The notes under the pieces: generated by a model | The model's database searches: none | Seen by the model: the letters and a program-made list of their open reading frames with translations, nothing else | Told to the model about the DNA's origin: nothing | Made by a program: the position numbers and the translations under genes | Origin: Escherichia coli | Lineage (GTDB): Bacteria; Pseudomonadota; Gammaproteobacteria; Enterobacterales; Enterobacteriaceae | Length of the DNA stretch: 17,115 nt | Assembly (NCBI RefSeq): GCF_003334765.1 | Contig: NZ_QOWT01000052.1 | Direction: 5' to 3' (one strand) | In this document: piece after piece, positions 575 through 4,295 of the stretch | Layout of the letters: each line of letters opens with the position of its first letter | Numbering within the stretch: position 1 is the stretch's first letter

Positions 575-2023
575 ATGCTAAAGGGCTTTGATATAACAAA
601 AGCAAAAGCACAAGAAGTAGATACAGAACTACTTAAGCGTAGAATTTCCACTGGAAAAGCCATCGCATTCACAGGTGCAGGCTTCTCACTCGGAACAAAA
701 AATGTACTAGGCTCTACCCCCCCAATGGCTGGAGAGCTAGCTAAGAAACTCAGTTTATTATGTAATCTCGAAGAATCTGAAGATTTAATGTTTGCAGCAG
801 ACGTTGCACTTGAGTACGCAGATAATATTTCAGTATTAGACTTACTTAAAGATAATTACACACTAACATCTGTTTCAGAATGTCATGAAAAAATATGTAA
901 ACTACCCTGGAAAAAATTTTTCACAACAAATTATGATAACTCTATAGAACTTGCCTGTCTGAATATAGGTAAACGTATAGAATCAGTTGACTTATCTTAC
1001 AAACCAACAAATTTTTTAAAAAAAAATAATGTTTGCCTTCATATTAATGGAAAAATTGAAAGTGCTGAACCTGAAGATTTAACCTCCAAAATAAAATTAT
1101 CAGATTCATCATACCTGTCTCCAGATTCATTTGTAAATTCTGATTGGTACTATCACTTCAAAAAAGATCTTGAAACCGCAAGTGCTATCGTATTTATGGG
1201 ATACTCCATGTATGATATGGATGTAAAAAAATTCTTGTTCGAAAATCCAGAGTTACAAGAAAAAACTTACTTCGTTGTAAGAGATGGTGCCGATTTTAAA
1301 GAAATATTCACCCTAAGAAAATATGGACATGTTTTGCCAATTGGGGTGGACAGGTTTTCAGATTTAATGAAGGATGTTCAAAAGCAATCACATGAAGATG
1401 GTGTTATCTTCACAGAAACACTAGTCAAATATGAAGTTTTCGACACACAAACAGACTTTAGAGATATTGATAGTGAGCGATTATTTCTTTACGGTGATTA
1501 TGAAATAGAAAAACTCCATGACTCTATCAGAAGAATAGAAACCATTCCGTACTTTATTAAACGCGATATAATTCCTGTTTGTCTTAACAACATTAAAAAT
1601 AATAATAACATTATTATCACTGGCGATCTGGGAAATGGAAAGTCTATAGTTTTAGAAATGTTAGCTTATGAGTTAACTGTAAATGGTTTTCACACATATA
1701 TATTACGAAATAACGATGGTGATTATGTTTCTGATCTTGATCAAATTATCAAACATGAGGGGACGGCCGTAATTATCATTGATAACTGCTCTAATCATCC
1801 GGGTTTGATAAAACATATTTTTGAAGTTAAAGCTGATAACTTAATTTATGTTTTTGCTGACAGAAACTCAAACGACATAAAATTTAATATTTCTCTTGAT
1901 TTTATAGAGCACAATATAGACTTACTATCTAGTGACGAAATCGCAAGCGCAGTAAAAATCATAGATAATTTATCTACATGGCAAAAATTTTCCGCATTAT
2001 CCACTGAGAGAAAAAAAGATTAG
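575..2023 (+). CDS. SIR2-like (SIR2_2-type) domain fused to a P-loop NTPase domain; N-terminal 482-aa segment of a longer frameshifted gene
   Basis: SIR2_2-like motifs: FTGAGFS, TTNYD, LHINGK, VFMGYSMYDMD. Walker A GDLGNGKS and Walker B-like AVIIIDN. RBS GGAG about 8 nt upstream of the ATG. AT-rich codon usage. Confidence 0.7.
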   Translation: MLKGFDITKAKAQEVDTELLKRRISTGKAIAFTGAGFSLGTKNVLGSTPPMAGELAKKLSLLCNLEESEDLMFAADVALEYADNISVLDLLKDNYTLTSVSECHEKICKLPWKKFFTTNYDNSIELACLNIGKRIESVDLSYKPTNFLKKNNVCLHINGKIESAEPEDLTSKIKLSDSSYLSPDSFVNSDWYYHFKKDLETASAIVFMGYSMYDMDVKKFLFENPELQEKTYFVVRDGADFKEIFTLRKYGHVLPIGVDRFSDLMKDVQKQSHEDGVIFTETLVKYEVFDTQTDFRDIDSERLFLYGDYEIEKLHDSIRRIETIPYFIKRDIIPVCLNNIKNNNNIIITGDLGNGKSIVLEMLAYELTVNGFHTYILRNNDGDYVSDLDQIIKHEGTAVIIIDNCSNHPGLIKHIFEVKADNLIYVFADRNSNDIKFNISLDFIEHNIDLLSSDEIASAVKIIDNLSTWQKFSALSTERKKD

Positions 2024-2301
2024 TATATGAAAAATATGACGCACAGCTATCTCTATTGCTTCTGGGATTGATAAATAGTCCAAATATAAAAACAAAAATC
2101 AAACAACAAACCGATTTAATATATTCCAATCCAGATCATAAAAAGAGCGTCTTCTGCATTTGCATTTGTGAAGTCGCTAATGTAGAACCAACATCAAGTT
2201 TAGTATCAGAAATATCAGGAACTAATGCTATTTATCATACATCACTAAGAAACTCCCCCCCCATTCAATCAAATTTTCAAAGTAAATGGAGCAACTATTA
2301 A
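2008..2301 (+). other. Middle fragment of the SIR2/NTPase gene in the +1 frame between two homopolymer frameshifts
   Basis: This frame is open from 2008 immediately after the A7 run (2011..2017) and ends shortly after the C8 run (2255..2262). Confidence 0.4.
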
Positions 2302-3019
2302 ATCAAAATCAAGCATTCTGTCATTATCTTTACTAAACAATACCTTTAGCGATATTTATGTAAGAGATGTACTCCTTGAAATTGTTGAACGTACTGACTC
2401 AATAAAAGACCAGGATATTGAAATAAAAAAAATATTTAAAGCACTATTGAGATTTCATATAGTTGAAAGAATTTTACCGAAGAATCAATCTGCACTAGAC
2501 AGATATTATGAACAGTTAAAATATAGATGCACATGGTTAATGGATAGCCCTCACTATTGGGTTCAATATGCAATGTGTCGACTATCTTTTTCAGATTATA
2601 ATAGAGCACAAAATTACCTAACCAACGCTTATCAAAAAGCAGAAACAAAAAAAGGAAGTTATCATACTGATAACATTGACACTCAACAGGCTCGTCTATA
2701 TTTAAATCAGTGTTTAGATCATAACAACAGTTCTGAGTGTTATAAACTGTTCGATAAAGCACATGCTCTTCTTGTGAAACTCCCCAATGAAGGAAGAAAG
2801 TTTAGACAAGTTCTGTTATATAAAAAAGTTTTTGATTTAAAATACCAAAGTTTCAGTAAAAAAAACAAAACTGATTTTGAACAGGCATGTAAAAAATTAT
2901 TAGATCAGACAAAACCAGATAATGTTTATCCTATAAATACTAATATGGTAAGATTCATCACCTCTGCTGAAGAGGCATTAATTGAAATATTAAACACTAT
3001 TATGCTAGAGCGAACTTAA
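2264..3019 (+). CDS. C-terminal alpha-helical (possibly TPR-like) segment of the SIR2/NTPase gene; the frame is open from 2264 although the ORF caller starts at 2447
   Basis: Same frame as 575..2023, open from just after the C8 run to the stop at 3019, followed by a strong terminator hairpin. Confidence 0.55.
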   Translation, partial: FNQIFKVNGATIKSKSSILSLSLLNNTFSDIYVRDVLLEIVERTDSIKDQDIEIKKIFKALLRFHIVERILPKNQSALDRYYEQLKYRCTWLMDSPHYWVQYAMCRLSFSDYNRAQNYLTNAYQKAETKKGSYHTDNIDTQQARLYLNQCLDHNNSSECYKLFDKAHALLVKLPNEGRKFRQVLLYKKVFDLKYQSFSKKNKTDFEQACKKLLDQTKPDNVYPINTNMVRFITSAEEALIEILNTIMLERT

Positions 3020-3027
3020 CTGTAAAA

Positions 3028-3053
3028 AGCCACCTCCTGAGGAGGTGGCTTTT
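3028..3053. terminator. Rho-independent terminator hairpin, possibly bidirectional
   Basis: Perfect 10-bp stem AGCCACCTCC / GGAGGTGGCT with a 3-nt loop, followed by TTTT and preceded by AAAA. Confidence 0.65.
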
Positions 3054-3096
3054 CAGAATCCCCCCTATAAGGATGGCAAATGTCATATTCCATTTT

Positions 3097-3468
3097 CTAC
3101 TCTAGCAACTCCATCTGCTGTTCATGTGTTTGTTCCATCTTTTCCTGGTACCTCACATATCGTCTGATAATTTCTTCGTTCCCCCCTACCGTATCAACAA
3201 AGTAACCCCTCGACCAAAAATGGTTTCCCCATAACTTCTTCCCGATATGCAGGAATCGATTGTAGAGTCTGATTGCACTGCGGTCTTTCAGCTGCCCCAT
3301 CAGAGTAGATATTGAGATTTTTGGTAGCACTATTACGACAAGATGCATATGATCTGGCTGTACATTTAACTCCAGAGCCTCGCAATCTTTTATTCCGCAA
3401 AGAATAAAGATGGTTCTGTACAGCTCCTTGCCCAATTTATCCCTCAGAATCCTAAAGCGGTACTTTAG
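3097..3468 (-). CDS. tnpA: IS200/IS605-family Y1 (HUH) transposase TnpA; N-terminus apparently disrupted (in-frame stop upstream of the conserved CKYHIV, no ATG)
   Basis: Minus-strand translation CKYHIVWTLKYR...DHMHLVV (HxH)...FWSRGYFVDTVG (catalytic Y region) matches IS200 TnpA. The ORF caller starts at an internal Met (3435). Confidence 0.7.
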   Translation of the reverse strand, partial: LKYRFRILRDKLGKELYRTIFILCGIKDCEALELNVQPDHMHLVVIVLPKISISTLMGQLKDRSAIRLYNRFLHIGKKLWGNHFWSRGYFVDTVGGNEEIIRRYVRYQEKMEQTHEQQMELLE

Positions 3469-3917
3469 CGTCCAGACTATGTGATATTTGCAACACTAAT
3501 ATACATGTGATGAACTTCTGTAAAGCCCTATATCAGTTTGTCTCCTTTTACTTGTGGTGTGTAAGCAGATATATTCAGACATGGACATTCTTCAGGCTAT
3601 AACCTTACAGGAACAATCACCACCTCCACAAGAGGTGAGGTTTTATTTTACCTGTCACTCCCAAAAGAGTATATTAATACATGAATAATGTCTTAGCATT
3701 CTATTTGGCATTCATATTAATTTAACTTCTGCACCCCTAATATTTCATTACTCTCTTTTGAATGTATGCCTGATACAGTATATGATGTTAAAAACTTAAT
3801 TGACGTTGTGTAAATAGACCCGTTTTGGTTACATACATTTTTTGAGATTCCGGAAAGAATTACCCTGTCCCAAAATCAATACAGTGCTAAATCAGAGATC
3901 TTTGTCTTTCCTGAGAC

Positions 3918-4295
3918 TTCAAAAAAATTCAGCCGGCGTCACGTCATTTAATTATGAATGCGTTCTCTCATGATTATATTTCCTGCGCCAGTAATCGAGT
4001 TTGTCTTGTGCATCTTCCAGTTTTCAGCGCCAGTGATATAAGACGGTAATTCGCCATTTGGATTGTCCGCATCCCCATAACGGTCAAACATCGTGGCGTT
4101 GACACAGTGACAGGAACCAGTGAATGTTCAGACACTCATCCCGCAGACTGCCGTTAAACGATTCAATAAACGGTTTATCTGCCAGCTTTCCGGGGGGCGA
4201 GAAGTCCATGTTCACACCGTGTTCATACGCCCCTTTATCCAGACTTTTGAGATAAACTCGCTGCCGTTGTCACCGCCACGATGTTTGACCGTTAT
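3918..4295 (-). pseudogene. IS3-family (IS2-group-like) orfB C-terminal remnant with frameshift and premature stop
   Basis: Minus-strand frames give GGDNGSEFISK, PGKLADKPFIESFNGSLRDECLNIHWFLSLEDAQDKLDYWRRKYNHERTHS, then stop, then TPAEFF: a DDE/integrase core C-terminus. Confidence 0.55.

Follow-up and report, generated by a model that had tools for sequence, protein, structure and literature searches.

Salmonella IS200, an element of 707 bp, carries at its left end a terminator that has been described as protecting against impinging transcription, and the stem that sequesters its Shine-Dalgarno (SD) sequence has been shown experimentally (PMC4513863). In IS608, guide and cleavage sites are arranged around subterminal hairpins (PMC3201880). 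Here, we compare with these elements a locus in a 17,115-nucleotide stretch of Escherichia coli DNA (contig NZ_QOWT01000052.1; the whole stretch is referred to as the window), in which an earlier note, made from the letters alone, had recognised an IS200-family tnpA without a start codon and a terminator-like hairpin in its presumed left end. Judged by sequence comparison, window 3022-3638 is, with a probability of about 90%, the fossil of a single-strand, 'peel-and-paste' insertion sequence (IS) of the IS200/IS605 family, from its tnpA-only IS200 group. It is a dead, immobile copy of an already known kind of IS, and as such ordinary.

Results

Identity and extent of the remnant

The remnant occupies ~615 bp on the minus strand, from the right-end tip at ~3022 to 3637/3638, where homology to intact copies stops. 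The element ends were set from six independent full-length intact E. coli copies and further compared with a non-autonomous miniature copy and a copy from Photobacterium. In megablast and blastn searches the remnant showed ~93% nucleotide identity to intact copies over 3022/3025-3637; the alignment including the ends, which the earlier note had proposed as a check, thus bears out the family assignment, with the left tip absent. The remnant carries tnpA and no other gene, and there is no tnpB. By inspection, neither the six intact copies nor the window revealed terminal inverted repeats or a target-site duplication: the element tips, TTGTTATCCC... and ...TCTTTTACT, do not form inverted repeats, and no duplication shows in the flanks. 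An Rfam scan of the whole window at E<=1 returned no family, and no curated IS200 antisense or 5'UTR RNA was recognisable in it.

The ~93%-identical intact relatives are found on chromosomes and plasmids of E. coli, Salmonella, Klebsiella and others, in several copies in some strains, and were counted in 168 of 5,426 E. coli genomes and in 669 plasmid records. An intact element encoding the transposase WP_038989254.1 lies, for example, beside ompX in strain CUPF09, the chromosome of which holds nine copies, and the element also occurs on IncHI2-type and other plasmids. By comparison of such copies, a live relative consists of a 144-aa Y1/HUH tnpA between two subterminal hairpins that share CCACCTCC-N3-GGAGGTGG, adjoins on its 5' side a T-run, TTTT[A/G], preceded by a terminator-like hairpin, and buries the SD and ATG of its gene in a long 5'UTR stem. 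Indeed, a hairpin (-7 to -21 kcal/mol) and T-run directly precede each of the six intact E. coli copies, as they do the miniature derivative and the Photobacterium copy, which suggests from the insertion sites that intact relatives strongly target the T-runs of intrinsic terminators. Examples of such insertions are those after the ompX, yehD and pbp4b-side terminators.

Several reduced forms of the element were also seen. The miniature derivative measures ~230 bp and lies in the queD-dpdD interval of the E. coli 2013C-4991 chromosome; it lacks tnpA but keeps a left end with tip and hairpin, as well as a right hairpin of the form GCCACCTTC-TAA-GAAGGTGG and the tip CTTTACT. Many Escherichia, Salmonella and Klebsiella plasmids carry a solo piece of the left end, ~113 nt long, with the tip, the hairpin and most of the 5'UTR up to a break immediately in front of the SD; on the one plasmid examined this piece is located between a ProQ/FinO-family gene and a permease gene. 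The copy on pGJ3-1 of Photobacterium sp. GJ3 may also be truncated, as its tnpA similarity is apparently lost after about codon 108 (...FWARG, then unrelated sequence).

Subterminal hairpins and the adjacent T-run

The right-end subterminal hairpin (IP_R; 3025-3053, minus strand) has the core CCACCTCC-TCA-GGAGGTGG at 3030-3048, which A/T pairs extend to a 13-bp stem with DNA folding energies of -15.4 and -15.5 kcal/mol (z -5.9 and -7.0). Intact right ends read ...CTGAAAAG-CCACCTCC-TCA-GGAGGTGG-TCTTTTACT up to the junction; the core stem-loop of the window copy is the same, and its 3' tail differs in two bases (GGCTTTTTAC versus GGTCTTTTAC). The TTTTAC right tip (3022-3029) and the stop codon (3017-3019) of a convergent SIR2-family ORF are 2 nt apart, and the hairpin starts 6 nt after this stop codon.

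In sister plasmids such as pSTEC711_5 (WP_089664696.1), the SIR2-family gene (575-3019, plus strand) is a single ORF of 814 aa. In the window, a deletion of 1 nt near 2010 and an insertion of 1 nt at 2255 split the gene into three ORFs (575-2023, 2056-2301 and 2447-3019). The gene of pANT_425 differs again, lacking the insertion at 2255 and having one extra base near 2890. These indels could be real decay or homopolymer sequencing errors.

At the left end, the hairpin (IP_L; 3620-3638, minus strand) is decayed. It reads TCACCTCT-TGT-GGAGGTGG, with six Watson-Crick and two G.T pairs, and aligns to the left-end hairpin of the intact copies, CCACCTCC-TAG-GGAGGTGG, which has 9 bp; two C>T changes weaken the window version. 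By itself, it folds no more stably than expected by chance (DNA fold z -1.4 to -1.5, RNA fold z -1.75), whereas the hairpin of an intact copy reaches z -4.9. The hairpin is nevertheless judged real because of its homology to the intact copies and because the motif is limited to the element ends: the motif CCACCTCCNNNGGAGGTGG, with at most three mismatches, has exactly two matches in the window, one at each end of the element (0.03 expected), and CCACCTCC-N3-GGAGGTGG matches with no mismatch at 3030-3048 and with two at 3620-3638. Moreover, the Photobacterium copy carries a compensatory T-A>G-C change in its left hairpin, from which it follows that the structure itself is under selection. By homology, the left hairpin of the window is a decayed form of the predicted subterminal TnpA-binding hairpin, with the same motif as the right end.

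The earlier note had described this structure as a terminator-like hairpin, i.e. a stem CACCTC/GAGGTG followed by a T-run. The stem and run do exist on the plus strand at 3621-3649, where CACCTC (3621-3626) pairs with GAGGTG (3632-3637), followed by AGG and by TTTTATTTT (3641-3649), and the hairpin does lie in the left end; but it is a subterminal TnpA-binding hairpin by comparison, and the run falls beyond the homologous element and reads antisense to tnpA. Indeed, every match outside the sister plasmids stops at 3637. In the orientation of tnpA the run reads AAAATAAAA, an A-run upstream of the stem, and therefore cannot stop transcription entering the element; the left hairpin is then followed by TGATTGTTCC, not by a T-run, and the left hairpin of intact relatives has a T-run on neither side. 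The strand and position of the run, as read from the sequence, would thus rule out an IS200-style terminator.

Could the hairpin and TTTTATTTT at 3621-3649 instead be a working intrinsic terminator for plus-strand read-through from the SIR2 gene, antisense to the dead tnpA? The terminator pattern is matched, the T-run is good (8 T in 9) and the orientation is correct for plus-strand transcripts; in a scan of 1.1 kb, two terminator-like sites were found against 0.7 +/- 1.0 in shuffled sequences, and both are the left hairpin. However, the stem is short (6 bp, closed by a 5-nt loop) and stands 3 nt before the run, its fold is no better than that of shuffles, and no plus-strand gene ends nearby. 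The SIR2 stop lies 600 nt upstream and is itself directly followed by the far stronger right-end hairpin (13 bp, RNA z -5.5). The juxtaposition is explained by a left hairpin that happens to abut unrelated AT-rich DNA, and we consider a working terminator here doubtful. A wider form of this idea would be an exaptation in which the right hairpin acts as terminator of the SIR2-family defence gene and the left hairpin with its T-run either backs it up as a second terminator or forms the 3' end of an antisense RNA, and to this we likewise give little credence; if true, a defence gene on a plasmid would take its 3' processing signals from an IS remnant. The right-end hairpin may be a putative transcription terminator of the SIR2-family gene, a passive role and the sole plausible one left to the remnant.

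The missing left tip

Intact left ends consist of TTTT(A/G), the junction, then TTGTTATCCCTAAA - CCACCTCC-TAG-GGAGGTGG - TGATTG..., the hairpin foot being 14-15 nt away from the junction. In the window, unrelated sequence stands where the intact copies have this conserved 15-nt tip and the T-rich cleavage and target site. Elsewhere in the window, the canonical tip found only a chance-level match with three mismatches. From the abrupt stop of homology at 3637/3638 we infer that the left tip has been lost. The left flank of the window also contains nothing comparable to the hairpin and T-run that precede intact copies, which suggests that the original left junction is gone. As cleavage of the IS608 type needs a site 5' of the left hairpin, the remnant would probably not be excised even if transposase were supplied in trans.

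A different reading is that the left end is complete, with a lineage-specific tip of 24 nt, GGGAGTGACAGGTAAAATAAAACC, after CTCTTTT at 3663-3666, so that the element would be dead in cis and mobilisable by a related TnpA. MAFFT places a TTTT-G of the window opposite the TTTT-G junction of an intact copy, the place expected for a guide, close to the hairpin foot on its 5' side, still has AAAA, and the right end is essentially intact. Yet these 24 nt show no similarity to a tip that is kept in the 79%-identical Photobacterium copy (TTGTCATCCCTAAA) and can still be made out in the miniature derivative (TGTTGTCACCTCTGAA), which has diverged further. The spacing would be 24 nt instead of 15, the TTTT is preceded by no terminator-like hairpin (-1.8 kcal/mol), in contrast to six out of six intact E. 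coli copies, and the variant is seen in no second context. We hold a complete left end to be quite unlikely and prefer the loss of the tip. The window copy may also represent a distinct sub-lineage, the own authentic left tip of which is not visible elsewhere.

The sequence to the left of the break was also considered as the end of another IS that cuts into the left end, and this was rejected: within 3638-3960, only 3808-3960 is an IS3-family fragment, and 3640-3807 had no match outside the same sister plasmids. Queries with the 3' end of the SIR2 gene (2500-3024) and with the right-hand flank (3638-3810) gave the same nine plasmids only, and neither an empty site nor a second copy of the variant was found among them.

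Plasmid context and distribution of the variant

Has the damaged copy moved? The variant was found at one locus only, with the same flanks, in nine E. coli-genome records, nine plasmid records and two metagenome contigs. The exact 26-nt left-end pattern had no match in 100,044 species representative genomes (one per species), and two matches in metagenome contigs, both in the same plasmid region. The window belongs to an E. coli plasmid; compared with ~10 sister IncF-type plasmids, it is 99.2-99.9% identical; it differs from pANT_425 at four positions in its whole length, and 2950-3850 is 100% identical between the two. With the variant confined to a single locus in the sequences searched, there is no sign of movement since the lesions arose.

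In pANT_425, the segment that matches the window is bracketed by two IS3 copies with the same transposase (WP_085947771.1). The segment includes defence-like genes (SIR2-family, NACHT, DUF3800 and pentapeptide repeat), a ParDE-type toxin-antitoxin pair with a frameshifted toxin, a tyrosine recombinase, a FIB-type RepB and many IS fragments (IS21 istA/istB, IS3-family and ISNCY pseudogenes).

Lesions of the tnpA gene

The tnpA pseudogene (3097-3531, minus strand) is 435 nt long and collinear with the gene of the intact 144-aa TnpA WP_038989254.1. The earlier assignment to IS200-family tnpA holds: the product matches Pfam Y1_Tnp with E=2.7e-35 and NCBIfam transpos_IS200 with 120.5 bits (cut-off 55). 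An intact relative matches the solved TnpA structures 2ec2 and 2f4f (Sulfolobus), 2xm3 (ISDra2) and 2a6m (IS608) with E values from 1e-26 to 5e-20. By this homology the gene would encode a Y1/HUH transposase, and by its lesions it is a pseudogene.

Translated from the minus strand, 3097-3600 reads ...RMSMSEYICLHTTSKRRQTDIGLYRSSSHVY*CCKYHIVWTLKYRF...ELLE*, and the transposase frame ends at 3097. An in-frame TAG (3498-3496) directly precedes CCKYHIV. The earlier note had let the homology begin at CKYHIV, which the alignment to intact relatives contradicts: the 11 codons that precede the TAG (GLYRSSSHVY), the SD AAGGAG (3547-3542, minus strand) and the former start codon, now ATA (3531-3529), all align to them. 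The gene does lack a usable start, as had been claimed, but the cause is a G>A change at 3529 that turned ATG into ATA, together with a G>A change at 3497 that turned codon 12 (3496-3498) from TGG into TAG (W12>stop), and with further damaging substitutions. Likewise, the statement that no ATG precedes the homology is right in so far as no ATG, GTG or TTG occurs between the TAG and CKYHIV; two in-frame ATGs do exist further upstream, at 3588 and 3582, and are cut off by the TAG. These two ATGs, neither of which has a convincing SD, open a 30-aa ORF ending at the TAG, and in an amber-suppressor host this ORF would read through into the transposase frame to give an N-terminally extended protein.

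Altogether, 24 of the 435 nt differ from the intact gene. Beyond the start and codon 12, these changes alter 13 more amino acids, and three of the alterations, P22L, P69L and G83D, affect positions conserved in the alignments to 2ec2 and 2f4f. The conceptual translation retains the HUH motif as H61-M62-H63 (V62M relative to intact copies) and the aligned catalytic Tyr125. The dN/dS ratio of tnpA against the intact family is 0.33, not ~1, so some of the 7% divergence built up before function was lost. This fits, as far as the substitutions can tell, a lineage that diverged while functional and decayed afterwards. The ATA start and the TAG at codon 12 are common to all five sister-plasmid copies aligned, some of which have extra frameshifts; the inactivation therefore predates the spread of the plasmid lineage. 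The window copy has no complete tnpA reading frame with a start codon, as an autonomous element would, and would make no transposase. The earlier judgement that the element is probably inactive is thus upheld by the comparison of the start and codon 12 with intact copies.

The same region shows the decay of a 5'UTR stem-loop (3520-3610, minus strand), which in intact copies pairs the SD and ATG with upstream sequence. In an intact copy, the 126-nt stretch that includes the left hairpin and reaches codon 6 is predicted to fold into the hairpin and a long stem with -52.3 kcal/mol (z -6.2), compared with -29.6 kcal/mol (z -0.5) for the equivalent 126 nt of the window (3515-3640, left-end hairpin included). 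Folding of the left end, another check named in the earlier note, thus finds strong structure in the intact copy, and in the window a hairpin that does not exceed shuffled sequences. The stem is kept with compensatory pairs in the 79%-identical Photobacterium copy, in a comparison of four sequences of which three are nearly identical. An SD-sequestering 5'UTR stem, as in left-end regulation of the IS200 type, is thus predicted in the intact relatives and lost in the window, where according to the folding model the start-codon mutation and nearby changes have destroyed it.

Does any alternative start rescue the gene? RefSeq/PGAP calls a non-pseudo 127-aa 'IS200/IS605 family transposase' (WP_162753152.1) from an ATA at 3480, while sister plasmids are annotated differently, among others with 111 aa or as 'frameshifted'. 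An in-frame start with a ribosome-binding site, which the earlier note had held would speak against its reading, does formally exist: an internal GAGG-N6-TTG (3433-3445, minus strand) opens a residual ORF of 112 aa (3435-3097). In intact copies the identical sequence is plain coding sequence (L-R-D-K-L-G), the product would miss the first 32 residues including the YHIVWTPKYR segment, and we do not judge the TTG a genuine start. That the gene is still functional from the ATA at 3480 or the TTG at 3435, and the IS live, is very improbable: although PGAP calls an intact CDS, an in-frame GAGG-TTG is present and neither the HUH motif nor Tyr125 has been lost, translation very rarely starts at ATA and no SD stands before it here, the conserved N-terminal YHIVWTPKYR that aligns to solved TnpA structures is missing in part or in full from both products, P22L, P69L and G83D alter conserved residues, a second insertion of the variant was found nowhere, and frameshifts are accumulating in sister copies. 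The 'intact' 127-aa protein is probably an annotation artefact and deserves flagging.

Discussion

A decayed IS200/IS605 copy in an IS-rich, IS3-flanked plasmid segment is routine and of small biological weight. The dead copy can serve as a stable marker of one plasmid lineage, and the comparison set assembled around it comprises E. coli and Salmonella relatives that have a left-end architecture of the IS200 type and sit directly 3' of terminator-like hairpins and T-runs.

The window copy shares gene order, right-end hairpin, 5'UTR and SD with the intact element encoding WP_038989254.1. It differs in the ATG>ATA and W12>stop changes and the 13 further amino-acid changes, in a weakened left hairpin, a collapsed 5'UTR stem and the absence of the conserved left tip, and in that it does not lie beside a terminator-like hairpin and T-run.

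IS608 and ISDra2 (2a6m, 2vhg, 2xm3) have a homologous Y1/HUH TnpA (E ~1e-20) and, like the relatives of the window copy, subterminal hairpins at the two ends on one strand without terminal inverted repeats. A motif shared by the hairpins of the two ends is the hallmark of the imperfect palindromes bound by TnpA in the IS200/IS605 family, as in the IS608 mechanism (PMC3201880). The A-rich tetranucleotides 5' of both hairpin feet could, from their position, be guides for T-rich cleavage sites, a pairing that we can only infer for the window's relatives. Unlike IS608 and ISDra2, these relatives have no tnpB, and their target is a T-run after a hairpin, not TTAC or TTGAT.

Salmonella IS200 belongs to the same family, is also tnpA-only and has its catalytic Tyr at position 125 as well. 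The likeness to IS200 left ends noted earlier holds at this family level, but the relatives of the window copy are a different tnpA-only element, with a 144-aa TnpA and a length of ~630 bp. Their left hairpin, flanked by a T-run on neither side, does not appear from its sequence to be an obvious bidirectional terminator. The 5'UTR stem of the intact relatives, which the window copy has lost, mirrors the SD-sequestering stem of IS200.
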